The notes: a model not told the origin generated them from the sequence alone. A stretch of 64,000 nucleotides of DNA from Elusimicrobiota bacterium (GCA_030696455.1 JAUYSH010000026.1:8764-72763), one strand, 5' to 3'. Numbered from the stretch's first letter, positions 12,932 through 58,766 are shown. Numbers and translations are program-made.

Positions 12932-12932
12932 G

Positions 12933-16012: not shown

Positions 16013-16023
16013 CGGAGAATTTC

Positions 16024-17840: not shown

Positions 17841-17859
17841 GCGCCGCCTCATACCGACG

Positions 17860-26502: not shown

Positions 26503-26508
26503 TAGAAT
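26500..26508 (+). promoter_or_regulatory. Extended -10 box TGATAGAAT, 7 nt upstream of ATG 26516
   Basis: Overlaps the TGA stop of the radical SAM gene. The first ATG (26507) lies inside the box; the second ATG (26516) is at leaderless distance. Confidence 0.4.
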
Positions 26509-26515
26509 GTCCCCC

Positions 26516-27508: not shown

Positions 27509-27509
27509 C

Positions 27510-42350: not shown

Positions 42351-43298
42351 TCAGGACGGGTCGTAGATGGCGGCGATGAGCCGCATCGTCTCGACCGACT
42401 GGTCGAGCGTCGTGGACGCGGACGGACGGCCGAGGGCGGCCGCGACGGCCGCCTCCGCTTGGGCGAGGAAGCCCGGCTTGAAATCCTTGTCGCGCGAGTG
42501 GATCTCGACGGCGGCCGCGGGCGAGCCGAGCTCCTGGCGCGTGAGCTGCTCGAGCGGACGCATCTCCCAGCGCTTGGCGCCCGCCGCGACCGCGCACGAC
42601 CACGGGCCCGGCGCGCGCCAGACCGCCTCGTATAGGCCCTGGTCGCCGGAGTCGTACTCGACGCGCGCCAGCACGAACTCGGGCCGGGCCGGGTCGTATT
42701 TGGAGAGGCGCTCGACGCGAACGGCCTTGCCGCGCGCGAACAGCCGGAAGTAGTCGATCAGGTGCAGGGAGTTGGCGTACATCCAGTTGTCGGCGATGGG
42801 CTTCGGCACGCCGGCCGCGAGGACCCTGTCCATGTTCTGCTGGTCCTGGACGCGGACGAATCTGGGTCCCTCGGTCGCGGCGAGCTCGGCGGCGGCGGTC
42901 GTCGTCGCGGAATAAAAGGCGCGGTTGTGCGCGACGAGCGCCCGGCGGCCGGCCTTCGCCGCCGCGGCCTGAAGCGCAAGCGACTCTTTCAGGTCCAATC
43001 CCGCCGGCTTCTCGAACAGCACGGTCCACGGATGGCGGAAGCACGCCAGCCCGATCTCGAGCATCGAGGTCTCGTTGACGGTGACGACGACCAGCGCCGC
43101 CTTCGTCTTCTCGTACAGCTCGTCCACCGAGCCGCAGATCTCAGGGATCCCGCGCTCGGCCGCGAGCGCCACGGCCCGCGCGCGCGTGCGGCTGAAGATG
43201 CCGGCGAGGCGGACGCCCGGGACGGCGGCGAACGCCTTCGCGTGCTCCTTGGCCGTGTAGCCGGCTCCTATCAGCGCGACCGCGCAGGCTTCGCTCAT
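42351..43298 (-). CDS. Gfo/Idh/MocA family oxidoreductase
   Basis: VALIGAGYTAKEHAKAF Rossmann start and LFEKP motif. 315 aa. 4-nt overlap with the upstream minus-strand gene. Confidence 0.8.
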   Translation of the reverse strand: MSEACAVALIGAGYTAKEHAKAFAAVPGVRLAGIFSRTRARAVALAAERGIPEICGSVDELYEKTKAALVVVTVNETSMLEIGLACFRHPWTVLFEKPAGLDLKESLALQAAAAKAGRRALVAHNRAFYSATTTAAAELAATEGPRFVRVQDQQNMDRVLAAGVPKPIADNWMYANSLHLIDYFRLFARGKAVRVERLSKYDPARPEFVLARVEYDSGDQGLYEAVWRAPGPWSCAVAAGAKRWEMRPLEQLTRQELGSPAAAVEIHSRDKDFKPGFLAQAEAAVAAALGRPSASTTLDQSVETMRLIAAIYDPS

Positions 43299-44308
43299 GC
43301 GAAGGTGAAGCGGCGCTCGAGCGAGGCGGCCTCGTCGGACACGGCGACGGCCGCGTGGCCGTTCTCGTGAGACCGGTAAGCCGCCGCGACGACGGCGACG
43401 GCGGAGCGGCCATCCTCCCCCGTGGGGATCTCGCGGCCGGAGATGAGCGCCTCGAGCACGGACCGCGAGGGTGCCAGCGCGTCAGCCGGAGCCACGCGGA
43501 CCTCGCGCGTGGCGGACGGCATGCCGTAGCGCGTGGTGGGCAAGGCGCGGTGCTCGGCGAGGCGGCCGAGGACCTCGATGCGTCCGCCGAGCTCGTCGGC
43601 GACGAGCACCCCGTGCCGGCCGGCGTAGATCACCCGCACGCCGTGGCCCTGGTCGGAGCCCATCTCCATGTACAGGCGGCGGCCCGAGGGGTTCTCGACG
43701 CGGATCTCGCCCGCGCCGTCGTCGAACTGGGGCCCGCGGGGATTGGGTACTCGGTCCTTCGACAGCCACGCTGAGACCGTCGCGGGCTTCTCCCCGGTCA
43801 GCCAGCGGAACATCTCGAAGTAGTGAGAGCCGTTCATGGCGAGGCCGAAGTTCCCGGCGACGACGGTGACGCTGGCCAACGCGCCGATCTCGTCGGCGTC
43901 GATGAGCTCCTTGACCTTGGTGTACTGCTCCATGTAGCGCATCTGGTGGTTGACGGCCAGGCGTGTCCCGCTCGCGCGGCAGGCGGAGATCATCGCGTCG
44001 CACTCGGCCAGGGAGGTGGCCAGCGGCTTCTCGCACAGAACGGCCTTCGCGCCGCCGGCGGCCGCGAGCGAGGTCAGCGGGCCGTGCCCCGGGGCGGTGG
44101 TGGCCACGATGACGCACTCGGGCTTGACCGCCTTGAGCATCGCGGCGGGGTCGGCGAAGCGCAGCTCCGGGGAGGCGCCCAGGTCTCCGGCCTTGGCCAG
44201 GGCCTCGGGGCGGGAGTCGCAGACCCCGGCCAAGGGAAGGCCGAGCGTCTTGACGTTCTGGAGGTGGCGCAAACCCATCGAGCCGAGGCCGATCACCGCT
44301 GTCCGCAT
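43295..44308 (-). CDS. Gfo/Idh/MocA family oxidoreductase
   Basis: MRTAVIGLGSMGLRHLQN, VLCEKPLA, LAVNHQMRY. 337 aa. Confidence 0.82.
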   Translation of the reverse strand: MRTAVIGLGSMGLRHLQNVKTLGLPLAGVCDSRPEALAKAGDLGASPELRFADPAAMLKAVKPECVIVATTAPGHGPLTSLAAAGGAKAVLCEKPLATSLAECDAMISACRASGTRLAVNHQMRYMEQYTKVKELIDADEIGALASVTVVAGNFGLAMNGSHYFEMFRWLTGEKPATVSAWLSKDRVPNPRGPQFDDGAGEIRVENPSGRRLYMEMGSDQGHGVRVIYAGRHGVLVADELGGRIEVLGRLAEHRALPTTRYGMPSATREVRVAPADALAPSRSVLEALISGREIPTGEDGRSAVAVVAAAYRSHENGHAAVAVSDEAASLERRFTFA

Positions 44309-44378: not shown

Positions 44379-45233
44379 ATGAAGAAGCTGCTCAAGATCT
44401 TGCTTCCCGAATCCACCCGCGGCGCGCTCCGGCGCGCGCGTGAGAGCCTCCTCCTCAGAAGCCTGCGGGCGGCCGTCGAGGAGCAAGGCCTGTCGGCCTC
44501 CGTGCGAAGGCACACAGAGGTGTTCCCCGAGCTGTCGCGGCAATACACCGACTTCGAGCTCGATACCGAGTTCCTCGAATACAAGGTCCGCGCCCAGCAG
44601 TCGTTCCAGGTCAGCCTCGCCGCCCCCGTCCTCGCCGCCCGTCCCGGGGCGACCGTCGTCGACATCGGCGACTCCTCGGGCGCGCACATCGCCGCCCTCA
44701 AGGCCATGCTTCCCGACGGCGGTCACCGCTTCCTGTCGGTGAACCTCGATGAGAAGGCCGTCGCCCGCGTGAAGGCTCGCGGCTTCGAGGCCCTGCTGTG
44801 CCGCGCCGAGGCGCTATCGGAAAAGGGCGTCAAGGCGGACATCTTCCTGTCCTTCGAGACCCTCGAGCACCTGAACGACCCCGCGACCTTCCTGCACCGG
44901 CTGTCGAAGACCGCCTGCGACCGTCTGGTCCTCACCGTGCCCTACATGACCGAGACGCGCGTGGGGCTTCACCACCTTCGGGCCGGGCTGACCAAGAAGG
45001 TGAGCCCCGAGACCGTCCATCTCTTCGAATTCAGCCCCGCCGACCTCAAGCTTCTGGCGGCGCATTGCGGCTGGGCGGTCGAGACGGAACGGATCTACCG
45101 CCAGTACCCCCTGAATTCGCCCCTGCGCGGGACGCGAGCCATCTGGAAGGACTGGGATTTCGAGGGGTTCTACGGCCTGGTCCTACGCCGCGACGAGCGG
45201 TGGTCTTCCCTCTATACGGGCTGGAACGACTGA
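44379..45233 (+). CDS. Putative class I SAM-dependent methyltransferase
   Basis: MKKLLKILLPEST..., VVDIGDSSGAHIAAL (degenerate motif I), DIFLSFETLEHLNDP, DRLVLTVP. The track ATG 44337 lies upstream of the -10 box and gives an odd N-terminus, so ATG 44379 is preferred. Confidence 0.6.
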   Translation: MKKLLKILLPESTRGALRRARESLLLRSLRAAVEEQGLSASVRRHTEVFPELSRQYTDFELDTEFLEYKVRAQQSFQVSLAAPVLAARPGATVVDIGDSSGAHIAALKAMLPDGGHRFLSVNLDEKAVARVKARGFEALLCRAEALSEKGVKADIFLSFETLEHLNDPATFLHRLSKTACDRLVLTVPYMTETRVGLHHLRAGLTKKVSPETVHLFEFSPADLKLLAAHCGWAVETERIYRQYPLNSPLRGTRAIWKDWDFEGFYGLVLRRDERWSSLYTGWND

Positions 45234-45257: not shown

Positions 45258-45263
45258 TAGAAT
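45258..45263 (+). promoter_or_regulatory. -10-like TAGAAT box, 13 nt upstream of the kpsF ATG
   Basis: gattttgTAGAATtatcc in a 43-nt intergenic gap. Same 13-nt spacing as at 9361 and 44360. Confidence 0.45.
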
Positions 45264-45276
45264 TATCCTTGCGCAC

Positions 45277-46257
45277 ATGGCGAAATCAACGAATTCGTCG
45301 CTGATGGAGATCCGCCGCGTCCTCGCCCTAGAGGCGCGAGCCCTCACCCGGGTCGCCTCCGCCGTGGACGCGAGATGGGCCAAGGCCGTGGAGTTCATCG
45401 TCCGGTGCCGGGGCAAGGTGGTCCTGACCGGGGTGGGCAAGTCCGGCCTCGTCGCCCAGAAGATCGCGGCCACCTTCTCCTCGACGGGCACGCCGGCCCT
45501 GTTCCTCGACCCCGGCGAGGCCGCTCACGGAGGCCTGGGCGCCGTCCAGAAGGGCGACCTCGTACTCGCGATCGGGAAATCCGGCGAATCCGACGAGCTC
45601 AACCTGCTCCTGCCGGCCTTGCGCGCGCGCAAGATCGCCCTCATCGCGATGACCGCCAACCCCCGCTCGACCCTGGCCAAGGCCGCGTCGCTCGTCCTCG
45701 AGACGCCGATCGAGGCCGAAGCCTGCCCGCTCGACCTCGCCCCGACGACGAGCACCACGGTCGCGATGGCGCTCGGCGACGCGCTCGCCGTGGCCCTCAT
45801 GAAGCGCCGGGGCTTCAAGGCGGAGCATTTCGCCGCCAACCACCCGGCCGGGCGTCTGGGCAAGCGCCTGACCTTGCGCGTGCGCGACGTGATGCGCGCG
45901 GGCAAGGACAACCCGGTCGTGCCCCTCGGCGCCTCGGCGACGGAGCTCCTCGCCACGATCACGCGGCTGCAGGCCGGGGCCGCGTCCGTCGTGGACCGCA
46001 AGGGCCGCTTCCTCGGGCTCGTCACCGATTTCGACATCCGGCGCGTGCTCGAGGCGGGCGGGGATTTCCGCCGCCGCAAGCTGACCGACATCATGAACGC
46101 CGCGCCGACGACGATCCTGCCCGACGCGCTCGCCGCCGAGGCCGTCGAGGTCATGGAGGACCGGCGCACCCCCTTCAACGTCCTGCCCGTCGTGGACGCG
46201 AAGGGGCGCTCGGTCGGCATGATCCAGATCCACGACCTCCGGGCGCGAGGACTTTGA
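45277..46257 (+). CDS. kpsF: Arabinose-5-phosphate isomerase (KpsF/GutQ family, SIS + CBS pair)
   Basis: GKVVLTGVGKSGLVAQKIAATFSSTGTPALFLDPGEAAHGGLG, LAIGKSGESDEL, C-terminal CBS pair (VVDRKGRFLGLVTDFDIRR; VVDAKGRSVGMIQIHDL). Confidence 0.88.
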   Translation: MAKSTNSSLMEIRRVLALEARALTRVASAVDARWAKAVEFIVRCRGKVVLTGVGKSGLVAQKIAATFSSTGTPALFLDPGEAAHGGLGAVQKGDLVLAIGKSGESDELNLLLPALRARKIALIAMTANPRSTLAKAASLVLETPIEAEACPLDLAPTTSTTVAMALGDALAVALMKRRGFKAEHFAANHPAGRLGKRLTLRVRDVMRAGKDNPVVPLGASATELLATITRLQAGAASVVDRKGRFLGLVTDFDIRRVLEAGGDFRRRKLTDIMNAAPTTILPDALAAEAVEVMEDRRTPFNVLPVVDAKGRSVGMIQIHDLRARGL

Positions 46258-47009
46258 TGACCCTCAAGGACAAGCTGCGCAAAGGCGTCCCCACGATCGG
46301 CACCTGGCTCACCTTGGCCCATCCGGCGCTGGCCGAGATGGCCGCCCGGGCCGGCTTCGACTGGGTCGCCGTCGACCTCGAGCACAGCTCGATCACCCTG
46401 CGCGAGTGCGAGGACCTGATCCGGGTCATCGATCTCGCCGAGGGCACGCCGCTCGTGCGTCTGACCTCCAACGACCCCGACCTCATCAAGCGCGTGATGG
46501 ACTCCGGCGCGCGCGGCGTCATCGTGCCGACGGTGTCGACGGAAGAGGAAGCTCAGCTCGCCGTAGAGGCGGTGTATTATCCCCCTCGCGGTCGGCGCGG
46601 CGTCGGCCTCGCCCGGGCCCACGGCTACGGAGCGGATTTCGCGGGCTACATGAAGCGGCTCGCCAAGGAAGCCGTCGTGGTCGCCATGATCGAGACCGCC
46701 CAGGGTGTGGAGAACGCGGAGCGCATACTCGGCGTCGACGGCGTCGACGCGTACTTCCTGGGGCCGTACGACCTGTCCGCGTCCCTCGGCGTCATCGGCA
46801 AGACCTCGCACCCCAAGGTGGAGAAGGCGATCGCGAAAGTCCGCGCGGCTGGAAAGCGTACGGGCAAGCCCGGCGGCATCCACGTCGTCGAACCGGATCC
46901 CGCGGCATTGAAGCGCCGGATCAAAGAGGGCTTCAGATTCGTCGCCTACAGCCTCGAGACCCGGATCTACGACGTCAACGTGCGCGCCGCGCTGCGCGCG
47001 GCGCGATGA
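46257..47009 (+). CDS. HpcH/HpaI-family class II (pyruvate) aldolase
   Basis: GTWLTLAHPALAEMAARAGFDWVAVDLEHS, PLVRLTSNDPDLIKRVMDSGARGVIVPTV, YPPRGRRGVG, VVAMIETAQGVENAERI, DAYFLGPYDLSASLG. TGATG junction with kpsF. Confidence 0.82.
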   Translation: MTLKDKLRKGVPTIGTWLTLAHPALAEMAARAGFDWVAVDLEHSSITLRECEDLIRVIDLAEGTPLVRLTSNDPDLIKRVMDSGARGVIVPTVSTEEEAQLAVEAVYYPPRGRRGVGLARAHGYGADFAGYMKRLAKEAVVVAMIETAQGVENAERILGVDGVDAYFLGPYDLSASLGVIGKTSHPKVEKAIAKVRAAGKRTGKPGGIHVVEPDPAALKRRIKEGFRFVAYSLETRIYDVNVRAALRAAR

Positions 47010-47794
47010 ACGTCGTCGCCATCGTCCCGGCGCGCATGGCCTCGACGCGCTACCCGGGCAAGCCCATGGCCGCCATCCGGGGCGTGCCGATGATCGGCCA
47101 CTGCTATTTCCGCACCGCCATGGCCGAGACCGTCGAAGAGACCTACGTCGCCACCTGCGACAAGGTCATCTACGACTACATCCGCTCCGTCGGCGGCAAG
47201 GCGGTCATGACGAAGGACACGCACGAGCGCTGCTCGGACCGGACCGCCGAGGCGATGCTCAAGATCGAGTCGCAGACGGGCAAGCGCGTCGACATCGCGG
47301 CCATGGTCCAGGGCGACGAGCCCCTGGTGCGCCCGGAGATGATCGACGCCGCGGTCAAGCTGCTCCTGGACGACCCGTCCTGCCCGATCGCCTGCCTGAT
47401 GGGCCGCATCGAGGACGAATCCGAGCTCGACGACCCGAACTGCGTGAAGGTCGTGACCGACCTGAAGGGCCGGGCGCTGTATTTTTCGCGCGAGGGCATC
47501 CCATCGCGGCGCAAAGGCGCCGCGATGAGTTTCCCGCGATATCGGCAGGTCCCCATCATCCCCTTCCGCCGCGACTACCTCCTGCGCTTCAACGACCTCG
47601 CACCCACCCCGCTCGAGATCGCCGAGTCCGTGGACCTGATGCGCTGCGTCGAGCACGGCGACGCCGTCCGGATGGCCGTGATCGAGCGGGTGACGGTCAG
47701 CGTGGACACGCCCGGCGATCACGCTCGCGCGGAAGCCGTGATGAAGGACGACCCCCTTTTCGCGAGGTACGCCCCGGGAGCGGCGGCCCGATGA
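47006..47794 (+). CDS. kdsB: KdsB-family 3-deoxy-ulosonate cytidylyltransferase
   Basis: MNVVAIVPARMASTRYPGKPM, MVQGDEPLV, CVKVVTDLKGRALYFSREGIP, VDTPGDHARAE: collinear with E. coli KdsB blocks as I recall them. ATGA overlap at 47006. Confidence 0.8.
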   Translation: MNVVAIVPARMASTRYPGKPMAAIRGVPMIGHCYFRTAMAETVEETYVATCDKVIYDYIRSVGGKAVMTKDTHERCSDRTAEAMLKIESQTGKRVDIAAMVQGDEPLVRPEMIDAAVKLLLDDPSCPIACLMGRIEDESELDDPNCVKVVTDLKGRALYFSREGIPSRRKGAAMSFPRYRQVPIIPFRRDYLLRFNDLAPTPLEIAESVDLMRCVEHGDAVRMAVIERVTVSVDTPGDHARAEAVMKDDPLFARYAPGAAAR

Positions 47795-48840
47795 GGAAGC
47801 TGCGCGTCGGCATCGCGGGGTACGGCGTCGTCGGCAAGCGCCGCCGGCTGCACATCGACGCGCACCCCGGCCTGGCCGTCGTCGCCTTGAGCGAGGAGAA
47901 GTTCGGACGGGATGCCACGGCGCCCGACGGCGTCCAGCAATACGCCGACTATCGCGACTTGATCGCCAAGCAGCCGCTCGACGCCGTGTTCGTCTGCCTG
48001 CCCAACTACCTCGCCGCCGACGCCACGGTGCGCGCGCTCGAGAAGGGACTCCACGTCTTCTGCGAGAAGCCCCCGGGCCGCGACCTCGCGGACATCGCCG
48101 CGGTCCGCGCCGCCGAGCGCCGCCGGCCCAAGCTCGCGCTCAAGTACGGCTTCAACCACCGCTACCACGACTCGGTGCGCGACGCGCTCAAGCTCGTGCG
48201 CTCCGGCAAGCTCGGCCGCATCCTGAACCTCAACGGCGTCTACGGCAAGAGCCACATCATCCCCTTCGACAAAGGCTGGCGCGCCGAGCGCAAGCAGGCC
48301 GGCGGCGGCATCCTGCTCGACCAGGGCATCCACATGGTGGACCTCATGCGCCTGTTCGCGGGCGACTTCGACGAGGTCCGCAGCGTGATCTCCAACGCCT
48401 ACTGGAAGCACGACGTCGAGGACAACGCCTACGCGCTGATGAAGACGAGGTCCGGGATCGTCGCCCTGCTCCACTCCTCGGCGACCTCGTGGCGCCACCG
48501 CTTCAACCTCGACATCACGCTCGAGAAGGGCGCCTTGACCCTCTCCGGCATACTCTCCGGCTCCAAGAGCTACGGCGCGGAGACCCTGACGGTCTCCATC
48601 GCCGCGAAAGGCGACGCCGGCGATCCCAGCGAGACGACGACGCGCTACAACCAGGACAACTCCTGGCGCGACGAGGTCCGCGAGTTCGCCGACTGCGTGC
48701 TGAAGAAGAAGCGGGTGCTCCACGGCGATTCTCTCGAGGCCTTGAAGACGATGGAGCTGATCTACCGCATCTACTGCGCCGACCCGGCGTGGAAGAAGAA
48801 ATACCGGCTCAGCGACCGCATCCCGAAGGTGACCCGATGA
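47791..48840 (+). CDS. Gfo/Idh/MocA family oxidoreductase
   Basis: LRVGIAGYGVVGKRR, VFCEKPPG, KYGFNHRYH. ATGA overlap at 47791. Confidence 0.82.
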   Translation: MRKLRVGIAGYGVVGKRRRLHIDAHPGLAVVALSEEKFGRDATAPDGVQQYADYRDLIAKQPLDAVFVCLPNYLAADATVRALEKGLHVFCEKPPGRDLADIAAVRAAERRRPKLALKYGFNHRYHDSVRDALKLVRSGKLGRILNLNGVYGKSHIIPFDKGWRAERKQAGGGILLDQGIHMVDLMRLFAGDFDEVRSVISNAYWKHDVEDNAYALMKTRSGIVALLHSSATSWRHRFNLDITLEKGALTLSGILSGSKSYGAETLTVSIAAKGDAGDPSETTTRYNQDNSWRDEVREFADCVLKKKRVLHGDSLEALKTMELIYRIYCADPAWKKKYRLSDRIPKVTR

Positions 48841-49556
48841 AGAAACCTCTCTCCGGACGCAAAGCCCTCGTCACCGGAGGCACGCGCGGCATCGGCCTCG
48901 CGATCGCCGAGCGCCTGCGCGACATGGGCGCCGCCGTGACCGTCACCGGAACGCGGGGCGGCGGCCAGGCCCCGCGAGGCTGCGCCTACGAAGCCGTGGA
49001 TTTCTCCCACGCCGAGGCGGCCGAGGTCTTCGCCGCGGCCATGGCCGGCCGCCGCTTCGACATCCTCGTCAACAACGCCGGGATCAACAAGATCGCGCCG
49101 TTCACGGAGATCGACGGCGCCGACTGGGACCTGATCCAGCGCGTCAACGTCCGCGCCCCTTTCGTCCTCTGCCGCGCGCTCCTTCCCGGCATGATCAAGA
49201 AACGCTGGGGCCGCATCGTCAACGTCGGCTCGATCTTCGGCGTCATCAGCCGCGACCGGCGCGGGCCCTACTCGGCGAGCAAGTTCGCCCTCGACGGCAT
49301 GACCGCCTCCCTGGCGGCCGAGGCCGCCGCGCACGGCGTGCTCGCCAACTGCGTGGCCCCCGGGTTCGTGGACACCGACCTCACGCGCCGCATCGTCGGC
49401 GCCAAGGGCATGAAGGAGCTCGCCCGGCGCGTGCCGGCCGGACGCCTGGCCAAGCCCGGCGAGATCGGCGCCTTCGTCGCCTGGCTGTGCGGCCCCGAGA
49501 ACACCTACATCAGCGGCCAGAACCTCGTCATCGATGGCGGATTCACGCGAGTCTGA
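48837..49556 (+). CDS. Short-chain dehydrogenase/reductase (classical SDR)
   Basis: ALVTGGTRGIGLAIA (TGxxxGxG), NNAGI, YSASKFAL (Y-x-x-x-K). ATGA overlap at 48837. Confidence 0.85.
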   Translation: MKKPLSGRKALVTGGTRGIGLAIAERLRDMGAAVTVTGTRGGGQAPRGCAYEAVDFSHAEAAEVFAAAMAGRRFDILVNNAGINKIAPFTEIDGADWDLIQRVNVRAPFVLCRALLPGMIKKRWGRIVNVGSIFGVISRDRRGPYSASKFALDGMTASLAAEAAAHGVLANCVAPGFVDTDLTRRIVGAKGMKELARRVPAGRLAKPGEIGAFVAWLCGPENTYISGQNLVIDGGFTRV

Positions 49557-50625
49557 CCTCGTCATCTCCTCTCACAAGGGGCCCTACGCGGTGGAATTCC
49601 GCGGCGACCCCTTCGCGGAGCTGAGCCCGCTCGCCGCGTCCGGCGCCCATTTCCTCGTGGACGCGCGGGTCGCCGAGCTCTACTCCCGCGAATTGGCCCC
49701 CGTGCTCGCCTCCCCCTCCGTCCTCCGCGTCGAGGCGACCGAGGACGCCAAGTCCATCGAGTCGATGCCGGGATTCGTGCGCCACCTCGTGTCGAAAGGG
49801 CTCCGCCGCGGACAGAGCCTCGTCGCGATCGGCGGCGGGATCACCCAGGACATCACCTGCTTCCTCGCGGCGACGATGCTGCGCGGCGTGCCCTGGTCCT
49901 TCGTCCCGACGACCTTGCTCGCGATGGCCGACTCCTGCGTCGGCTCGAAAAGCTCGATCAACGGAGGCGGCGCGAAGAACGTTTTGGGAACCTTCACCCC
50001 GCCCAAGCGCATCGTGCTCAGCGCCGGCTTCCTGAAGACGCTCGACGAGAAGGACGTCCGCTCCGGCGTCGGCGAGATGCTCAAGGTCCACGCGATCGAC
50101 GGCCCCGCCTCCTTCGACCGGATCGCCGCCGATTACCCGCGCCTGTTCACCGAGCCCGCCGTCATGACGGCCTACCTGCGCCGTTCGCTGGAGATCAAAA
50201 AGCCCATCGTCGAGGCCGACGAGTTCGACCAGAGCGTCCGCCTGGTCATGAACTACGGCCACAGCTTCGGTCACGCCCTGGAGTCGGCGACGGCCTTCGC
50301 CATCCCGCACGGCATCGCCGTCACGATCGGCATGGACCTGGCCAACTTCGTCTCCGCGCGCCTGGGGCTGGGTGACCTGGTGCACTACCGCCGGATGCGC
50401 GCCACCCTCGCCATGAATTGGCGGGGCTACGAGTCGACGCCGGTCCCTCTCGACGACTTCCTCGCCGCGCTGGCCAAGGACAAGAAGAATACCGCCAAGG
50501 CCCTGGGCCTGATCCTGCCGGACAAGGACGGGAAGATCCGCAAGGTCGACGCGCCCGCCGACGAGGTCTTCCGCGCGGCCGTCGCCGAGCATCTCTCCAA
50601 AGGCCGCTCACAGGAGCTCTCGTGA
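49534..50625 (+). CDS. 3-dehydroquinate-synthase-family protein (sugar-phosphate cyclase-like)
   Basis: VAIGGGITQDITCFLA (GGG-x-x-x-D nucleotide loop), TTLLAMADSCVGSKSSIN, GEMLKVH, NYGHSFGHALE (metal His pair). No other shikimate genes nearby. Confidence 0.75.
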   Translation: MADSRESDLVISSHKGPYAVEFRGDPFAELSPLAASGAHFLVDARVAELYSRELAPVLASPSVLRVEATEDAKSIESMPGFVRHLVSKGLRRGQSLVAIGGGITQDITCFLAATMLRGVPWSFVPTTLLAMADSCVGSKSSINGGGAKNVLGTFTPPKRIVLSAGFLKTLDEKDVRSGVGEMLKVHAIDGPASFDRIAADYPRLFTEPAVMTAYLRRSLEIKKPIVEADEFDQSVRLVMNYGHSFGHALESATAFAIPHGIAVTIGMDLANFVSARLGLGDLVHYRRMRATLAMNWRGYESTPVPLDDFLAALAKDKKNTAKALGLILPDKDGKIRKVDAPADEVFRAAVAEHLSKGRSQELS

Positions 50626-51563
50626 GCCCCGTCGCCGTCGCGTCGCGCTCGTTCTCCAAGCACTCCGTCCTGCGCTCCGAACTGGCGGCCCGCTTTCCGA
50701 ACGCGAAGTTCAACGACGCCGGCGCCTCGCTGAAGGGCGAGGAGCTCGTCGCCTTCCTGTCGGGGTGCGAGAAGGCCGTGCTCGCCCTGGAGACCGTCGA
50801 CGACGCCCTGCTCGTCCGCCTCCCGGAGCTGAGGCTCGTCAGCAAATTCGGCGTCGGCCTCGACTCCTTCGACCTCAAGGCCATGGCGGCGCGCGGCGTC
50901 AAGCTCGCCTGGTCGCCGGGGACCAACTCGCGCTCGGTCGCGGAGCTGGCGCTGATGTCGATGATCGCCCTCCTGCGCCGGGTCCCCGAAGCCTGCGGAG
51001 ATCTGGCCGCCGGGAAATGGGGCCAGCCCAAGGGCTCGACCTTGACCGGCAAGACCGTCGGGCTCGTCGGCCTCGGCGCCGTGGGCCGGGAGCTGGCCGC
51101 CTTGTTGGCCCCCTTCGGCGTGAGCCTGCTCGCCCATGAGCCCGCGCCCGACCAGGCGGCCGTCGCGCGCCACGCCATCCGCCTCGTCCCGCTCGACGAG
51201 CTCCTCGCCCAGTCCGACGCCGTCAGCCTTCACATCCCCCTGACCCCTTCCACGCGGAACACGATCGACTCGGCGCGCCTGGCGCGCATGAAGCCTTCCG
51301 CGGTCCTGATCAACACCGCGCGCGGGGGATTGATCGACGAGGACGCCCTGCTCGAGGCGCTCGACTCAGGGCGTCTCGCCGGCGCCGCGCTCGACGCCTT
51401 CGCCGTCGAGCCGCTGAAGGACCGGCGCCTGGCGGTCCATCCCAGGATCCTCGCCACGCCGCACATCGGCGGGAGCACGGAGGAGGCGATCCTGGCGATG
51501 GGCCGGGCCGCGATCGCCGGACTCGACGCCGGGCGGGACGCCGCCGAGTTCATCCGCGGATGA
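50622..51563 (+). CDS. D-isomer-specific 2-hydroxyacid dehydrogenase (PGDH-like)
   Basis: GKTVGLVGLGAVGRELA (GxGxxG), LINTARGGLIDEDAL, TPHIGGST. GTGA overlap at 50622. Confidence 0.82.
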   Translation: MSPVAVASRSFSKHSVLRSELAARFPNAKFNDAGASLKGEELVAFLSGCEKAVLALETVDDALLVRLPELRLVSKFGVGLDSFDLKAMAARGVKLAWSPGTNSRSVAELALMSMIALLRRVPEACGDLAAGKWGQPKGSTLTGKTVGLVGLGAVGRELAALLAPFGVSLLAHEPAPDQAAVARHAIRLVPLDELLAQSDAVSLHIPLTPSTRNTIDSARLARMKPSAVLINTARGGLIDEDALLEALDSGRLAGAALDAFAVEPLKDRRLAVHPRILATPHIGGSTEEAILAMGRAAIAGLDAGRDAAEFIRG

Positions 51564-53407
51564 CGCGGCTGACCGTCTGCTGGACCACGCCGTCCGCCAT
51601 CCCCGAGGGGCCTCTCCTCAGCTTCCTGCCGCCGGCCGCGGAGGAGACCCTCGCCTCGCGCAGCCGGGGCTCCTTCCTGCGCGCCCGCGATATGCGCCCC
51701 GACGACCGGGCGGCCGCGCGCGCGGACTATCTCGGCGCGTGCGCGCGCATCGGAGCGGCCCGCGTCGGCGGACGGACCCTGCGGGAGGAATGCTCCGACG
51801 GCGAGGTCTCCGCCTGGTGGTTCCACCCGACCTCCTTCAAGGACTGCGAGAGCGACCCGGCGCTCGGCCGCCTCCTGGCCCTGCGCGCGATCCTGCGCGC
51901 CATCGCCGACGCCGGCGCCTCGGAGGTGGAGACGTGGGGCGCGCCCCGCGATCTCGCGCGCGTCCTGCGAGGACGCCTGCCCGTCATCGAGAGGGCCGCC
52001 CCCTGGGCGTCGCCGGAGCCGGTTTGGTGGCTGCGGGCCGCGGCCTCGCGCGCCTTCACCTTCGTCCAGGCGCTGCTCGACCTCGCGGCCTGCGCGGCGG
52101 CGGCCCCGCGGCCGTCCGTGCCGGGTCCGAAGGTCCAGCTGCTCGGCTTCTGGGACTGGTCGGTGCGCGCGGATGAGGGCGGCCGCCTGAGCGACCGCTA
52201 CTTCAAGGCCCTGCCCGACGAGCTGGCCGCGCTCGGCGCCTCCACCGGCCGCCTCTGCTGGCTCGACGCGGACAAGGACCCGGCCCGCCCCCCGCGCGGC
52301 CGCCTCGCCGCGGCCCGCGGCGCCGCCGCTTCCGGCGTCGTGCTCCTTCAATCCTTCCTCGACATCGGCGACGTCCTCGAGGCGGTCTCGGACATCAAGC
52401 CTCTGTCGGCCTACCTCAGGCGCCGCGGCGAGCCCGGCTTCCGCGCGGCCTTCTCCGCGGACGGGCTCGACCTTTTCCCCCTGTTCGAGGAACGCCTTCT
52501 CAGAGGCTTCCTCGACGGCGGCCTGCCCCGGTGCGAGCTGATCCGCAAGTCCGCGCAACGGGCCTGCGCGACGCTGAAGCCGTCGGTATGCGTTCATTTT
52601 CTCGAGCACTTCCTTCCCGCGCGCGCCGCCTTCGCGGGAGCCCGCGCCGCGGGGGCGGGCACGGCGGCGGTGCAGCACGCGAGCTTCTGCCGCGAGAAGA
52701 CCTTTTATTTCCTCGACCCCGCGCTCGAGTTCCGCGGCGAGCCCGACGGCCGCCCCGTTCCCGTGCCCGACCGCATCTTCGCGATGGGCCGCCTCTCGGC
52801 GGGCTATTTCCTGGAATGCGGCTACCCGTCCGAGAGGATCGTCGCGAGCGGCTCCCCGCGATACGACCACGTCCGGCCGCCCGCGCCCGCCAAGAGGCGT
52901 TCCGGACCCGGCGTCCGCGTCCTCCTCGCCCCGGCGCTCGACCTCGGGACCGAGGCCGCGCTGCTGGAAGCGGCGGCGGCGGCCTCCGCCGGCCTGCCCG
53001 GCGTCGAACTGCGCCTGCGGAACCATCCATTCGGCCCTTTAAGCGAGCGCCCGGAATTCGAGCCGCTCAAGGATCGCGTCGCGGTCTCGACCGGGACCCT
53101 CGACGAGGATCTCTCCTGGGCCGATCTGGCCATGTTCACCTACTCGACGGTGGCCGAGGAGGCGGTGCTCAAGGGAGTCCCCGCCTGGCAGTGGCGCCCC
53201 GTCTCCTACGACGCTTCCGCCCTGGCGGAGGCGGCCGACATACCCCGGTTCTCCTCGGTCGCCGCCCTGCGCGCGGCGCTGTCCCGTTTCCAGCCCGGAG
53301 ACGGCCTGCCGGACGACGCGGCGCGCGCCCGGCTCGTCGAAGACCTGTTCCTGATGGACGACGGCGGCGCGGCAAGGCGCGTCGCCAATTCGCTATACTT
53401 GCCCTGA
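51560..53407 (+). CDS. Hypothetical protein, candidate non-classical glycosyltransferase
   Basis: 615 aa. ATGA overlap with the upstream gene. Motifs GTAAVQHA and PDRIFAMG are collinear with those at 7464 and 21460. The C-terminal part (VRVLLAPA...FTYSTVAEEAVLKGVPAWQW) looks like a GT-B C-terminal Rossmann half. Confidence 0.6.
   Translation: MTRLTVCWTTPSAIPEGPLLSFLPPAAEETLASRSRGSFLRARDMRPDDRAAARADYLGACARIGAARVGGRTLREECSDGEVSAWWFHPTSFKDCESDPALGRLLALRAILRAIADAGASEVETWGAPRDLARVLRGRLPVIERAAPWASPEPVWWLRAAASRAFTFVQALLDLAACAAAAPRPSVPGPKVQLLGFWDWSVRADEGGRLSDRYFKALPDELAALGASTGRLCWLDADKDPARPPRGRLAAARGAAASGVVLLQSFLDIGDVLEAVSDIKPLSAYLRRRGEPGFRAAFSADGLDLFPLFEERLLRGFLDGGLPRCELIRKSAQRACATLKPSVCVHFLEHFLPARAAFAGARAAGAGTAAVQHASFCREKTFYFLDPALEFRGEPDGRPVPVPDRIFAMGRLSAGYFLECGYPSERIVASGSPRYDHVRPPAPAKRRSGPGVRVLLAPALDLGTEAALLEAAAAASAGLPGVELRLRNHPFGPLSERPEFEPLKDRVAVSTGTLDEDLSWADLAMFTYSTVAEEAVLKGVPAWQWRPVSYDASALAEAADIPRFSSVAALRAALSRFQPGDGLPDDAARARLVEDLFLMDDGGAARRVANSLYLP
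53394..53399 (+). promoter_or_regulatory. -10-like TATACT box, 7 nt upstream of ATG 53407
   Basis: Located in the last codons of the upstream gene, at leaderless spacing. Confidence 0.3.
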
Positions 53408-54036
53408 TGGCCGACAAACCGATGAGAAGCACCCGGCCCGGAGGCTACCATGCCCTCGGCCCGGGCGGGCTCGGGATCAAGGATTTCGCCCGTTGGTACC
53501 GGCGCCAGTCCCTCGAGCAGTGGGAAAAGCTCGACCTGGCCGCCCTCGAAAGGATCGCGCGCCTCGTCGAGTCGACGCGCGCCGCCGGAAGCTTCATCTG
53601 GGTCTGCGGCAACGGGGGTTCCGCCGCGACCGGCGCGCACATCGGCTGCGACTTCGGCAAGACCGCCGCCGCGCGCGGCCGCAAGCCCCTCAAGGCCGTC
53701 TCGCTCTGCGACAACACCGCCTTCATGACGGCGATCGGCAACGACCTGTCCTTCGACGAAACGTTCTCCCGCCAGCTGGAGAACGTCGCCGGCCGCGGCG
53801 ACCTCGTCCTCCTGATCAGCGGGAGCGGCAACTCGCCGAACCTACTGCGCGCCGCCAGGACCGCGCGCGCCAAAGGCGCCAAGGTCGTCTCCCTGCTCGG
53901 CTTCGACGGAGGCAAGCTCAAGGCCCTCTCGGACGAATTCCTCCTGGTGCCCTCGGATCAGTACGGGGTCGTCGAAGACATGCACATGTCGATCGCCCAT
54001 GTCCTGACCTTCTACCTCAAGCAGAAAAATGCCTGA
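53407..54036 (+). CDS. SIS-domain sugar-phosphate isomerase (GmhA / phosphoheptose isomerase-like)
   Basis: VCGNGGSAATGAHIGCDF, LISGSGNSPNLLRAARTARAKGAKVVSLLGFDGG, VVEDMHMSIAHVL. TGATG junction. Only the last 209 codons of track ORF 52531. Confidence 0.78.
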   Translation: MADKPMRSTRPGGYHALGPGGLGIKDFARWYRRQSLEQWEKLDLAALERIARLVESTRAAGSFIWVCGNGGSAATGAHIGCDFGKTAAARGRKPLKAVSLCDNTAFMTAIGNDLSFDETFSRQLENVAGRGDLVLLISGSGNSPNLLRAARTARAKGAKVVSLLGFDGGKLKALSDEFLLVPSDQYGVVEDMHMSIAHVLTFYLKQKNA

Positions 54037-54937
54037 TCGCATGAGCCGCGCGAAGACGATCCTCGTCACCGGCGGAACGGGGCTCCTCGGCAAGGGCATG
54101 GAGGAGACCGCGCCCGGCTCGGTCGCCCTCGTCAGCGTCCACCAGCGCGATTACCGCATACCGGGGTCCGCCGCCGAGCAGCTCGTGCTCGATCTGCGCG
54201 ACAAGCGCGCCGTCGACGCGCTGTTCGCCGAGCGGAAGTTCGACGCGGTCGTGCACGCGGCCGGCATCGCCAGCGTCGACTTCGTCGAGACCCACTACGC
54301 CGAGAGCCTCGAGTCCAACATCGTTTCCACGCTCAACGTCACCGCCGCCTGCCGCCGCGCCGACATACACCTCGTCTACGTCTCGACGAACGCCGTCTTC
54401 GACGGCACGAAGGCGCCGTACCGCGAGACCGACGCGGTCAACCCGGTCAACAAGTACGGGCGCCTGAAGGTCGAGTGCGAGCGCCTCGTCCAGGAGACGC
54501 TCAAGCACTGGACCATCGTCCGGCCGATCCTCATGTACGGCTGGAACCATGCCGAGACGCGCCCCAACCCCGCGACCTGGATCCGCGAGAAGCTGTCCAA
54601 GGGCGAGGGCGTCTCCCTCGTCACCGACGTGCACGAGAACCCCCTCTTCAACCTGCAGTGCGGCCGCGCGCTGTGGGCGGTCCTCGACAAGCGCCCCGAG
54701 GGGATATTCCATCTCGCCGGGGGCGAGCGCGTCGACCGCTATCAGTTCGGCGTCGCCGTCGCCGAGACCTTCGGCCTCGACGCCTCCTTGCTCAAGCCCG
54801 TGACGAGCGACGCCTTCCCCGGCATCGCGCGGCGCCCCCCGGACACGACCTTCGTCGTCGAGCGCATGGCGCGCGAGCTGGGCGTGGCGCCCATGACCCT
54901 GCGCGAAGGTCTCGCCGCGATGGCCGCGGGGGCGTAA
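54029..54937 (+). CDS. NDP-4-keto-6-deoxyhexose reductase-like SDR (RmlD family)
   Basis: ILVTGGTGLLGKG, VVHAAGIASVD, YGRLKVECE (Y-x-x-x-K). The start is ATG 54029 or ATG 54041 (MSRAKTILVTGG). Confidence 0.72.
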   Translation: MPDRMSRAKTILVTGGTGLLGKGMEETAPGSVALVSVHQRDYRIPGSAAEQLVLDLRDKRAVDALFAERKFDAVVHAAGIASVDFVETHYAESLESNIVSTLNVTAACRRADIHLVYVSTNAVFDGTKAPYRETDAVNPVNKYGRLKVECERLVQETLKHWTIVRPILMYGWNHAETRPNPATWIREKLSKGEGVSLVTDVHENPLFNLQCGRALWAVLDKRPEGIFHLAGGERVDRYQFGVAVAETFGLDASLLKPVTSDAFPGIARRPPDTTFVVERMARELGVAPMTLREGLAAMAAGA

Positions 54938-55848
54938 TGGCCGCGCCGCGGGTCTCCGTCGTTATCCCGGCCTGGAACGCGGCGGCCTTTATCGAGAAGA
55001 CCTTGGGCACGGTCGCGGCTCAGACCTTCGACGATTTCGAGATCATCGTCGTCGATGATGGCTCCTCCGATGACACGAAACTGGTCGTGGACCGGTTCCT
55101 GAAGGACAAGGGCCTGCGCGGCCTCTGTATCCGGCAGAACAACATGAAGATCGCCGGGGCGCGCAACACCGGCATCCGCGCGGCGGCGGCGGACCTGATC
55201 GCGTTCCTCGACCACGACGACCTGTGGTTTGCGGACAAGCTCGAGAAGACTTTGGCTGAGTTCGACGTGCGTCCCGACGCCGACCTCGTGTGCCATAACG
55301 AGAACATCGTCAAGGACGGCGCGCTCGTGCGCGTGTCGCGCAACGGGCCGCTGGTCGAGAATATGTACGAGCGCCTGCTGTTCGAGGGCAACGCCCTGTC
55401 GCCGTCGGCCGTGACGGTCAGGAAAGCGAAGCTCTTCGAGGCCGGTCTGTTCCGTGAAGACCCGGAGTTCAACACCGTCGAAGACTACGACCTGTGGATG
55501 CGGCTGGCCAAGGTCTGCCGCATCCGCTTCCTGGACGCGGTCCTGGGCGAGTACCAGCTTGTCGAGTCCGCCGCCTCCAACCGGATCGTCTATCACAACA
55601 CGAACCTCGAGAACCTCCTGCGCGATCACTTCCGCGGCTTCACCGACCCGGGGCCGCTGACGCGCGCGCGCATGCGCCGCCGCCTCGGCGTGATGTGCCG
55701 CTCGGCGGCGCAGCGGCTGCGGGCGCAAGGCGATCTCGACGGCGCGCGCCGCTACGCCGCGCGCGCCGTCGCCGAGTGCCCGTGGGATTGGAAGAATCTG
55801 GCCGTCGCCGGCCTGTGCGCCGTCGCGCGCCTCAAGGGGGTGCATTGA
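54937..55848 (+). CDS. Family 2 glycosyltransferase
   Basis: VSVVIPAWNAAAFIEKTL, IIVVDDGSSDDT, FLDHDDLW (DxD), EDYDLWMRL. TAATG junction. Confidence 0.85.
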   Translation: MAAPRVSVVIPAWNAAAFIEKTLGTVAAQTFDDFEIIVVDDGSSDDTKLVVDRFLKDKGLRGLCIRQNNMKIAGARNTGIRAAAADLIAFLDHDDLWFADKLEKTLAEFDVRPDADLVCHNENIVKDGALVRVSRNGPLVENMYERLLFEGNALSPSAVTVRKAKLFEAGLFREDPEFNTVEDYDLWMRLAKVCRIRFLDAVLGEYQLVESAASNRIVYHNTNLENLLRDHFRGFTDPGPLTRARMRRRLGVMCRSAAQRLRAQGDLDGARRYAARAVAECPWDWKNLAVAGLCAVARLKGVH

Positions 55849-58005: not shown

Positions 58006-58766
58006 GTTGGACTCACGGCCTCTGGAAAACCGTCGCGCGCGCGCGGGGAGCGTTCGGCTCGCCGGAGAGGCCCGGCCTACGCGTGCTCGGCTATCACGCC
58101 GTCGGCTCGACGCTTCCCGGCGATCCCTACGGGCTAAGCACCCCGGCCGAGGCGTTCGCGCGGCAAATGGATTTGCTCTCCTCGGGACGATTCGGCAAGA
58201 CCGTCCCCCTGGGCGGCGCGAAGCTCGACGGCGGCGCCGAGATCGCCGTGACGTTCGACGACGGGTACCGGGACGCCTTGACGACCGCGGCGCCGATTCT
58301 CGCGCGGCTGTCGCTTCCGTTCTCGGTCTGCGTCACGCCCGGCCTGCTCGATTCCGGGCGCCCCCACCTCTCCTGGCCGGAATTAAAAGAGCTGGCGCTC
58401 GTCCCCGGCTGCGAAATCGGCGCCCATGGCCTCACTCACGCGCGTCTCGACGGCCTCGGCGCGGAGGACCTGGCCCGCGAGCTCTCCGAGTCCCGCCGCC
58501 GCCTCGAGGACGCGCTCGGCCGCGCCGTGAGCGTCATGACCTGGCCTCACGGGGCGGCCTCGCGCCGGGCCGCGGACGCCGCGCGCGCGGCGGGCTATTC
58601 GCGGGCGGGCTGCTCGCTGTACGGCGTCAACGGGCCGGATCGGGAGCCGCTCCTGCTCAAGCGCACCGAGATCGTTTCCTTCGATGACGAGCGCGACTTC
58701 GCCGGCAAGGCCTCGGGCGCCTGGGATTGGTTCGCCCTGCGCCAGGGCGACCCGGCGAACCGATGA
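58002..58766 (+). CDS. Polysaccharide deacetylase (NodB homology) family protein
   Basis: VTFDDGYRDALTTAAPILARL, IGAHGLTHARL, WPHGA. GTGA overlap at 58002. Confidence 0.78.
   Translation: MSWTHGLWKTVARARGAFGSPERPGLRVLGYHAVGSTLPGDPYGLSTPAEAFARQMDLLSSGRFGKTVPLGGAKLDGGAEIAVTFDDGYRDALTTAAPILARLSLPFSVCVTPGLLDSGRPHLSWPELKELALVPGCEIGAHGLTHARLDGLGAEDLARELSESRRRLEDALGRAVSVMTWPHGAASRRAADAARAAGYSRAGCSLYGVNGPDREPLLLKRTEIVSFDDERDFAGKASGAWDWFALRQGDPANR

Follow-up and report, generated by a model that had tools for sequence, protein, structure and literature searches.

A 64,000-nucleotide stretch of DNA from an Elusimicrobiota bacterium (GCA_030696455.1 JAUYSH010000026.1:8764-72763; hereafter the window) carries, at positions 45277-51563, a block of seven genes (g1 to g7) that includes a relative of 3-dehydroquinate synthase (DHQS). 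We tentatively read this block as the Elusimicrobial version of a widespread module, termed here the TIGR04425 module, for a cytidine monophosphate (CMP)-activated, non-canonical 2-ulosonic acid, or a carba-analogue of such an acid, that is used in a surface glycan. It is very probably a module dedicated to a CMP-linked acidic sugar and unrelated to shikimate synthesis. The original prediction, made from the sequence of the window, was that this part of a glycan locus encodes a non-canonical and uncharacterised pathway for an acidic sugar activated with CMP. This held up, in that orthologues of the DHQS-like gene keep the same sugar genes around them. All seven open reading frames (ORFs) of that prediction were found on the + strand, and profile searches bore out all seven family assignments with strong E-values. 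The genes of the block and the two that follow it are as follows.

g1, 45277-46257, + strand: KpsF/GutQ-family sugar-phosphate isomerase with SIS and two CBS domains (SIS 1e-25, CBS 7e-16)
g2, 46257-47009, + strand: HpcH/HpaI class II pyruvate aldolase (Pfam HpcH_HpaI 3e-39, 134.9 bits against a cut-off of 25)
g3, 47006-47794, + strand: KdsB/KpsU-like CMP-transferase, type A (CTP_transf_3 7e-41)
g4, 47791-48840, + strand: Gfo/Idh/MocA oxidoreductase (N- and C-terminal GFO_IDH_MocA Pfam domains)
g5, 48837-49556, + strand: classical short-chain dehydrogenase/reductase (SDR), ketoreductase (adh_short 5e-44)
g6, 49534-50625, + strand: DHQS-like protein, TIGR04425 (DHQ_synthase and DHQS_C, 4e-31 and 6e-29)
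g7, 50622-51563, + strand: D-2-hydroxyacid dehydrogenase (2HADH) resembling phosphoglycerate dehydrogenase (PGDH) (2-Hacid_dh(_C) 5e-57)
g8, 51560-53407, + strand: putative transferase of GT-B fold, 615 aa, related to TIGR04326 (79.3 bits over residues 52-586)
g9, 53407-54036, + strand: GmhA-like SIS_2 sugar-phosphate isomerase, outside the seven-gene block (SIS_2 1e-17)

The junctions described for the block were likewise confirmed: TGATG at 46255-46259 (g1/g2), ATGA at 47006 (g2/g3), 47791 (g3/g4) and 48837 (g4/g5), a 23-nt overlap of g5 and g6 (ATG at 49534, stop at 49556) and GTGA at 50622 (g6/g7). The view of the block as a unit of seven genes did not stand, because the coupling runs on past g7 into g8 and g9. 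Further overlaps occur at g7/g8 (ATGA, 51560), g8/g9 (TGATG, 53405) and g10/g11 (TAATG), so that the predicted transcription unit spans at least 45277-55848.

Gene content of the module across phyla

The neighbourhoods of relatives in many phyla, about 65 loci overall, were fetched and all their ORFs were clustered; gene counts were made over 51 loci. The DHQS-like gene was present in 51, an SDR in 50, a 2HADH in 46 and a Gfo-type gene in 42, followed by a KdsB-like gene in 30, a GmhA-like SIS_2 gene in 26, an HpcH aldolase in 21 (about 40%) and KpsF in 6. The conserved core consists of the SDR, the DHQS-like enzyme and the PGDH-like 2HADH, usually with Gfo and the GmhA-like isomerase, plus a KdsB-like or NeuA-like CMP-transferase. 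The seven genes first grouped together are therefore not the conserved unit: KpsF adjoins the module in Elusimicrobiota only, the aldolase is a minority component, and g8 and g9 belong to the module although they lie outside the block. Two strings recur among the loci, namely, SIS_2-SDR-DHQS-like-2HADH, to which Gfo may be added, and HpcH-cytidylyltransferase-methyltransferase, in some cases joined by a TIGR04326-like protein. Type A loci have the aldolase and a KdsB-like enzyme that shares 40% or more identity with g3, type B loci have no aldolase and carry a more distant KdsB-like enzyme, a HisC-like aminotransferase and a second Gfo, and a third type uses a NeuA-like cytidylyltransferase. 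Carriers are found in Elusimicrobiota, Chlamydiota, Bacteroidota, Verrucomicrobiota, many Pseudomonadota (including Legionella and Magnetospirillum), Bdellovibrio-like predators and Actinomycetota, and the module is often embedded among legionaminic or pseudaminic acid genes.

The two isomerases differ in their standing within the module. g1 met the cut-off of the kpsF subfamily model TIGR00393 (287.9 versus 203.7 bits), with SIS and tandem CBS domains, and stayed under the equivalog cut-offs of KdsD (306 versus 505) and GutQ (272 versus 481); it is a lineage-specific addition. g9 is a core member, and genes of its type usually lie directly upstream of the SDR. It scored below the gmhA cut-off (TIGR00441, 116.7 versus 209 bits), its best structural matches were phosphoheptose isomerases (6e-28), and its metal and catalytic residues are H, D, E and H where Burkholderia pseudomallei GmhA has H, E, Q and H, which are conservative changes. 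From its sequence, g9 is classed as GmhA-like and not as an equivalog of GmhA.

g3 met the subfamily model NF009905 (291 versus 255) and fell narrowly below the kdsB equivalog cut-off (TIGR00466, 149.6 versus 155.2 bits). Its best structural match was Escherichia coli KpsU (3e-41), with the QGDEP and VDTP motifs aligned, and across the loci the identity of the KdsB-like enzyme to g3 tracks the presence of the aldolase. The 615-aa product of g8 had been regarded as an orphan, which it is not: 66 homologues were found, some of them named TIGR04326 by JGI, and g8 homologues adjoin aldolase and CMP-transferase genes in other phyla. g8 is a distant relative of TIGR04326, well below the cut-off of 250 bits. 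An AlphaFold2 model (pLDDT 95.3) gave Foldseek matches at 1e-8 to 1e-6 to GT-B proteins (UDP-GlcNAc 2-epimerases, GT-B transferases and TagF/TarL), by which g8 is confidently predicted to have a GT-B fold. No paralogues of g8 were found among the other large domain-less proteins of the window. Other loci use Maf-like transferases.

Two loci, L024 from Magnetospirillum and L005 from Elusimicrobia, carry acyl-modification genes in the position of the aldolase, upstream of the KdsB-like gene. Both encode an FkbH-like protein and a MaoC dehydratase, the latter fused to an SDR in L005; L024 further encodes an unfused SDR, an MBOAT protein and an acyl carrier protein, and L005 a hexapeptide acyltransferase. 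These genes hint that the product is O- or N-acylated in the two variants. L005 keeps KpsF, and the aldolase and SIS_2 are both missing, with the acyl-modification genes in their place. In several phyla (L012, L013, L016, L125 and L260, the last at 15150-15809), a gene for a PF04199 "putative cyclase" resembling kynurenine formamidase lies directly downstream of the 2HADH gene.

The DHQS-like enzyme and its partners

g6 matched TIGR04425, the NCBIfam family [quoted passage not shown] with model type hypoth_equivalog, from end to end and above its cut-off (445.7 versus 400 bits, E 1e-133), and fell below the AroB equivalog cut-off (TIGR01357, 246.6 versus 305 bits). Sequence matches in the Protein Data Bank at E <= 1e-5 were confined to true DHQS, with a best value of 2e-41, and to the other sugar phosphate cyclases, and the nearest relatives (77-93% identity) came from Elusimicrobiota metagenome-assembled genomes with an identical gene order. 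In comparison with 14 canonical AroBs, g6 keeps every known metal, catalytic/NAD-cycle, phosphate and carboxylate residue (Arg117, Asp133, Lys139, Asn149, Glu181, Lys184, Lys222, Arg236, Asn240, His243, His247, His259 and Lys317/318), and the family-specific changes (GGKT to GSKS, FxQP to FxPP, DSS to DSC, F to W121 and Q to F123) are concentrated around the residues on the phosphate side and in the nucleotide loop. The kept residues support a DHQS-like mode of action, not membership of AroB, and g6 probably follows DHQS chemistry, that is, oxidation, phosphate elimination, reduction and possibly aldol cyclisation. The substrate of 2-deoxy-scyllo-inosose synthase has no carboxylate, and BtrC, an enzyme of this type, presumably has Gly where DHQS has Arg264 (Arg236 of g6). 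Because g6 keeps the DHQS residues, and given this Gly in BtrC, its substrate should be a pyranose 2-ulosonate of the size of 3-deoxy-D-arabino-heptulosonate 7-phosphate (DAHP), with a CH2-O-phosphate on a ring carbon. It is probably not DAHP itself.

The genomic context of g6 relatives separates them from AroB. In about 65 loci, DHQS-like orthologues never occurred with shikimate or aromatic-catabolism genes and sat among the same sugar genes. A control set of 119 loci, mostly AroB genes, was drawn by a degenerate DNA motif; among the 119 matches listed, about 85 AroB-type genes had no module neighbours and all genes of the DHQS-like type had them. A profile-based genome scan for g6 relatives was dominated by AroB. 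No canonical aroB was found on a module-bearing chromosome among the fetched loci, where the second match was the same locus, and no annotated relative matched in a plasmid database.

The aldolase g2 was compared in the same way. It fell below every equivalog cut-off (HpaI 191/369, GarL 173/407 and RhmA 151/441), its closest structures were GarL, HpaI and YfaU (about 2e-43), and it contains DLEH, LVRL, MIET and GPYDLS, which, by comparison with the residues of HpaI, we take to be the His/Arg/Glu/Asp catalytic and metal motifs. In a search centred on the aldolase, three of three independent homologues sampled (58-61% identity; one from Chlamydiota and two from unclassified contigs) sat inside the module and not beside aromatic-catabolism genes. 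The aldolase is therefore integral to the type A sub-type and is not a stray catabolic gene. These contexts bear on the plainest explanation, that g6 is the DHQS of the organism or an aromatic- or quinate-pathway enzyme and that g2 is a catabolic HpaI/GarL aldolase. It would agree with the DHQS-identical catalytic residues and with the source annotations of relatives as "3-dehydroquinate synthase" and "2-dehydro-3-deoxyglucarate aldolase"; however, g6 scores below AroB and above TIGR04425, g2 scores below all equivalogs, the AroB-type genes have no module neighbours, and neither the roughly 65 loci nor the three aldolase homologues place these genes in shikimate or catabolic surroundings. The explanation retains almost no probability and is effectively refuted by genomic context.

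The oxidoreductases next to g6 are nearly as constant as g6 itself. g5-type SDRs lie beside the DHQS-like gene in 50 of the 51 loci and are its obligate partner. The best structures for g7 were all D-3-phosphoglycerate dehydrogenases (2e-54), with PdxB also matched, and g7 scored below the SerA cut-off (TIGR01327, 227.9 versus 454 bits); its gene type, the third commonest in the module, almost always adjoins the g6-type gene. Phosphoglycerate dehydrogenases oxidise the 2-hydroxyl of omega-phospho-2-hydroxy acids. The module's most conserved protein across phyla is the core member g4 (56-63% identity), whose closest structures (1e-26 to 1e-19) were inositol 2-dehydrogenase, 1,5-anhydro-D-fructose reductase, glucose-fructose oxidoreductase and aldose-aldose oxidoreductase. 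Its likeness thus spans C1-oxidising Gfo enzymes (glucose-fructose and aldose-aldose oxidoreductases) and inositol or 3-keto-forming ones.

A search of 1.8 billion proteins gave, within its top 150 representatives, a natural fusion of a DHQS-like enzyme with a PGDH-like 2HADH (P0335, 687 aa), which meets the TIGR04425 cut-off and has its parts in the order of g6 and g7. This fusion and the overlaps of g5 with g6 and of g6 with g7 support a coupling of the three proteins, and on balance we regard it as probable that 2HADH, DHQS-like enzyme and SDR form a consecutive unit acting on a phosphorylated 2-keto sugar acid. The original scheme gave the 2-hydroxyacid dehydrogenase no specific role, despite its frequency, its PGDH likeness and the fusion. 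The same set of representatives contained a near-family fusion of a DHQS-like enzyme with a HAD hydrolase of the beta-phosphoglucomutase type (P0433, 585 aa), which is hard to explain if the DHQS-like enzyme itself takes off the phosphate. In locus L261, the DHQS-like gene is directly preceded by a 556-aa ORF (14698-16368) that contains both a 2-Hacid_dh and an adh_short domain; this ORF may be an assembly artefact and not a genuine 2HADH::SDR fusion, as the contig has fragmented genes elsewhere. An intermediate DHQS-like class (33-41% identity, 160-220 bits), with an SDR as its only partner, was seen in L140, L143, L196, L209, L212 and L242, from Actinomycetota and Lachnospiraceae, and could represent a sister family whose pathway is simpler.

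A proposed order of reactions and competing schemes

The loci that DISCRIMINATE between the possible schemes are compact strings without a condensing enzyme, found in several Bacteroidota and related genomes. Joostella sp. CR20 has SIS_2-Gfo-2HADH-SDR-DHQS-like-DUF386(YhcH)-NeuA-like, and a Balneolaceae chromosome has PF01182-HAD-2HADH-Gfo-SIS_2-SDR-DHQS-like-transaldolase-DUF386-NeuA-like. PF01182 is the family of 6-phosphogluconolactonase and glucosamine-6-phosphate isomerase, and a Legionella locus with the aldolase also has a PF01182-like gene, there placed between the DHQS-like and 2HADH genes. Because such aldolase-free strings exist, the keto-acid for the DHQS-like enzyme can, as far as gene content tells, arise without a condensing enzyme, and they argue against the earlier idea that the aldolase generally replaces KdsA. 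A lactonase fits C1 oxidation, a transaldolase fits the supply of sedoheptulose 7-phosphate, and a GmhA-like isomerase fits a heptose. The YhcH-family protein together with the cytidylyltransferase suggests that the product keeps an anomeric 2-keto-acid centre in aldolase-free loci, which favours a 7-deoxy-ulosonic acid over a carbocycle there, with cyclisation still possible. Of the two outcomes in the original prediction, the carbasugar is retained as a possibility. Accessory genes of aldolase-free or Legionella modules (a PF01182 gene, a transaldolase, and a DUF386 (YhcH/YjgK/YiaL) gene just upstream of the NeuA-like gene) were located at L254 240-944 and 6007-7519, L116 7964-8665, L221 4473-4925, L239 796-1251 and L125 11069-11515.

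From the genes we infer the following order of steps, which as a whole, including the position of the aldolase, is doubtful. The isomerase g9, a core enzyme, would convert a ketose phosphate, most likely sedoheptulose 7-phosphate, into an aldose phosphate, with KpsF (g1) as a lineage-specific second isomerase. g4 would oxidise C1 to a lactone that opens to an aldonate phosphate, and the PGDH-like g7 would oxidise C2 to give a hept-2-ulosonate 7-phosphate, a DAHP analogue with both carboxylate and phosphate. g6 would then run the DHQS cycle of NAD+- and metal-dependent oxidation, beta-elimination of phosphate and reduction, and, since it would eliminate the phosphate, no KdsC-type phosphatase would be needed. 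The SDR g5 would reduce the ketone, either trapping a 7-deoxy-ulosonic acid or following carbocyclisation, which would make the triad redox-neutral. In loci with the aldolase, as here, g2 would add a pyruvate-derived C3 unit to a carbonyl of the core product and so provide a 3-deoxy-2-ulosonate end for the KdsB-like enzyme; this addition is the weakest part of the scheme. g3 would finally make the CMP-sugar, and the GT-B protein g8 would transfer it.

Several points weigh against this proposal. Both the activities of the enzymes of the module and its product are predictions. Neither the aldolase nor KpsF has a compelling role in the order above, and the TGATG coupling of their genes suggests a use of arabinose 5-phosphate and pyruvate, as in a rival scheme; L005, with KpsF and without aldolase and SIS_2, is also explained more easily by arabinose 5-phosphate and a housekeeping KdsA. 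The lactonase and transaldolase arguments are narrow, since PF01182 also holds isomerases and deaminases and was found in only two loci, and the transaldolase in only one. The Gfo family gives no positional specificity, so that C1 oxidation is one option of several, and the addition of pyruvate to a ketone would have its precedent only in the structures of natural branched sugars. Moreover, if the DHQS-like enzyme cyclises its substrate, CMP would be attached to a carbocyclic tertiary alcohol, an arrangement unsuited to ordinary glycosyl transfer.

Successive oxidation of C1 and C2 is nevertheless the reading that we rank first, tentatively, and a scheme that starts with the aldolase is ranked second and considered unlikely. 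In this second scheme, which follows both alternatives of the original prediction, an aldose phosphate from KpsF or the GmhA-like isomerase (here arabinose 5-phosphate) and pyruvate would be joined by HpcH to an acid like Kdo 8-phosphate (Kdo being 3-deoxy-D-manno-oct-2-ulosonate), in place of KdsA. The DHQS-like enzyme would replace KdsC and yield an omega-deoxy keto acid or a carbocycle, SDR, Gfo and 2HADH would tailor it, and the KdsB-like enzyme would activate it; where the aldolase is missing, condensation would fall to a housekeeping KdsA or to a synthase of the NeuB type. That g1 meets the subfamily model of arabinose-5-phosphate isomerases and is translationally coupled to the aldolase agrees with this, as do the lack of KdsA and KdsC in the window, the closeness of g3 to a true CMP-Kdo synthetase, KpsU, and the retention of KpsF without aldolase in L005. 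Condensation with an aldose phosphate would provide the carboxylate-plus-phosphate substrate needed by the conserved DHQS site, and the changes in g6 at the phosphate end of the pocket could fit a longer tail. In addition, the Thermoleophilia locus L115, the sole clear monoderm locus, has both SIS_2 and aldolase, whereas diderm loci often have no copy of one or both, as expected if housekeeping KdsD and KdsA substitute.

By contrast, the mechanism of DHQS-type E1cB elimination requires the phosphate on the carbon beside a ring carbon, which is the case in a C7 pyranose, whereas in Kdo 8-phosphate it is one carbon over. The scheme starting with the aldolase also leaves the PGDH-like 2HADH unplaced despite its presence in 46 of 51 loci and its fusion, and does not explain the lactonase-family gene and the transaldolase. 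Compact strings without aldolase and NeuB have a CMP-transferase of their own, and SIS_2 occurs independently of the aldolase (about 10 of 15 loci with it and 12 of 20 without it, counted from locus maps).

A route with the logic of nonulosonic acid synthesis, in which the core makes a free, dephosphorylated deoxy-aldose that is condensed with pyruvate or phosphoenolpyruvate (PEP) by the aldolase or NeuB and then activated with CMP, would account for the two recurring strings, which resemble a precursor block and a condensation/activation block. It would also account for the interchange of KdsB-like with NeuA-like and of HpcH with NeuB between loci, and for the frequent position of the module, in the window too, amid legionaminic or pseudaminic acid genes. 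We hold it to be improbable, because g6 keeps Arg236 and the other carboxylate binders although an aldose phosphate has no carboxylate, because a neutral-sugar route has no place for the PGDH-like 2HADH, and because compact aldolase-free strings exist. Alternatively, g1 and g3 might be an ordinary KpsF/KpsU pair that boosts CMP-Kdo, derived from a kdsA and kdsC elsewhere in the genome, for a Kdo linker, and the other genes would make a product that g3 does not activate. KpsF and KpsU are a classical pair of capsule loci, and g3 has KpsU as its best structural relative and misses the kdsB equivalog narrowly. Such a division into two unrelated sets is very improbable, however, since KdsB-like genes accompany the DHQS-like core in KpsF-free phyla with a subtype that tracks the aldolase, g3-type enzymes are the sole cytidylyltransferases of the module in type A loci, and g1 to g9 are all translationally coupled.

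A further reading, which we consider quite unlikely, is that g6 cyclises a carboxylated analogue of sedoheptulose 7-phosphate to a cyclitol carboxylic acid and that the aldolase adds pyruvate to a ring ketone. The C10 3-deoxy-2-ulosonic acid so formed would be bicyclic and carbocycle-fused, and after activation with CMP it would enter surface glycans in many phyla; if true, bacterial monosaccharides would gain a new class. A 2026 preprint describes CMP-activated C10 ulosonic acids of unassigned structure in Magnetospirillum gryphiswaldense (bioRxiv 10.64898/2026.04.20.719630). Several Magnetospirillum species carry the module, which might be related to these acids; we regard this as a lead only. 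Bradyrhizose and caryose were considered as products, and no link of either to the module could be made. The proposed bradyrhizose operon centres on a dTDP-glucose dehydratase and consists of genes that its authors describe as unknown (PMC4743980), and for caryose the origin is given as unknown (PMC9092360).

Related pathways and the surrounding polysaccharide locus

The module shares with the canonical CMP-Kdo pathway a KpsF-family isomerase, a KdsB/KpsU-like cytidylyltransferase and, most likely, a CMP-activated 2-ulosonic acid for a surface glycan as its product. Instead of the PEP-dependent KdsA and the phosphatase KdsC, however, the window has a class II pyruvate aldolase and the DHQS-like, SDR, PGDH-like and Gfo enzymes, and KpsF stands outside the conserved module. 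The absence of KdsA and KdsC, noted in the original prediction, was confirmed: a scan of all 59 predicted proteins of the 64-kb window found no DAHP_synth_1-type domain and no HAD-type hydrolase, a negative that covers the window, with copies possible elsewhere in the genome. Because of this absence and the narrowly missed KdsB cut-off, the module is not a Kdo pathway.

g6 resembles DHQS and the other sugar phosphate cyclases (aminoDHQS, 2-deoxy-scyllo-inosose synthase and the synthases of 2-epi-5-epi-valiolone (EEVS), of 2-epi-valiolone (EVS) and of desmethyl-4-deoxygadusol (DDGS)) in fold and in its metal, NAD-cycle, phosphate and carboxylate residues, but it forms its own family, TIGR04425, and its genomic setting is that of glycan loci with a CMP-transferase and not that of shikimate or natural-product clusters. 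Like the legionaminic acid, pseudaminic acid and Kdn pathways, the module combines precursor tailoring, C3 condensation, CMP activation and a dedicated transferase, in some loci with NeuA-like and Maf-like partners; unlike them, it has no nucleotide-sugar dehydratase or aminotransferase of the legionaminic/pseudaminic type, uses a pyruvate aldolase instead of NeuB in those loci that have such a condensing enzyme, and has core enzymes for sugar phosphates and sugar acids. The proposed oxidations of C1 and C2 would parallel Epd/PdxB/SerC of pyridoxal phosphate synthesis and phosphogluconate 2-dehydrogenase, where an aldose phosphate passes through an omega-phospho-aldonate to a 2-keto acid by way of a D-2-hydroxyacid dehydrogenase. 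The module differs in that its substrate is probably C7, its C1 dehydrogenase is of the Gfo family and not GAPDH-like, and its keto acid would go to a DHQS-like enzyme and not to a transaminase.

The statement that no characterised pathway has this gene set still holds as far as no such pathway was found, and the full-text literature searched contained no experimental work on TIGR04425, TIGR04326 or the gene combination; the conserved neighbourhood, though, had been noticed before, as both families are already named in NCBIfam. Should the proposed logic be right, bacteria of many phyla would form an activated acidic sugar with neither the condensing step nor the phosphatase step of Kdo or sialic-acid-type pathways, and a shikimate-type enzyme would act on a sugar acid formed by successive oxidation of C1 and C2. 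Two long-standing "hypothetical equivalog" families, TIGR04425 and TIGR04326, would thereby gain a function, the sugar phosphate cyclase superfamily would gain a new reaction, and flagella, O-antigens or capsules would carry a probably new monosaccharide. The module has carriers in culture, among them Joostella sp. CR20, Magnetospirillum moscoviense BB-1 and Bacteriovorax sp. BSW11_IV, and all of its enzymes are small and, judged by sequence, probably soluble, so that the chemistry is directly testable.

The window, with about 70% G+C and some 59 predicted genes, nearly all on the + strand, is over its whole 64 kb a surface-polysaccharide locus with Wzy-like genes at both ends, flippases, GT2 enzymes, rhamnose-type enzymes and many methyltransferases. 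Immediately before the block lies the following gene.

g0, 44379-45233, + strand: S-adenosylmethionine-dependent methyltransferase (Methyltransf_11 6e-06), of uncertain membership in the module

g0 is 43 nt upstream of g1, and the transcription unit may also take it in; its homologues precede the module in Elusimicrobiota loci and some Magnetospirillum loci. The block had been credited with a TAGAAT promoter of its own. The hexamer is present at 45258-45263, but a promoter scan found no sigma-70-like + strand site there, and over the 15-kb region gave one site against 0.7 expected from shuffles, using a sigma-70 consensus that may not be that of this phylum. Divergent from g0, two adjoining Gfo/Idh/MocA-like genes (42351-44308) are the sole minus-strand genes in that part of the window.

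A complete-looking set of the legionaminic acid type occupies 26507-33215 and comprises a 4,6-dehydratase, a CTP_transf_3 protein, a DegT aminotransferase, NeuB, a member of the hydrolysing UDP-GlcNAc 2-epimerase family, a PglD-like acetyltransferase and a CBS plus nucleotidyltransferase protein; it is followed by a second DegT gene at 33215-34378. Another nonulosonic-acid-like set, at 9380-16012, has a PseB/Polysacc_synt_2 dehydratase, NeuB, a Gfo protein, a 503-aa protein whose C-terminal domain is of the GNAT type and a 691-aa protein in which a CTP_transf_3 cytidylyltransferase is joined to a class III aminotransferase. With these two sets present, the block would be a third CMP-acid-sugar pathway within one polysaccharide locus. 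Two HisF/HisH-like pairs (4821-7467 and 16024-18591) each stand beside a paralogue of about 390 aa without a confident domain, the two paralogues being 29% identical to each other, and these sets resemble the acetamidino-forming amidotransferase sets of nonulosonic acid loci. Farther downstream, at 58763-61135, a 790-aa protein appears to be a fusion of a GT1-like domain and a Polysacc_synt flippase domain.

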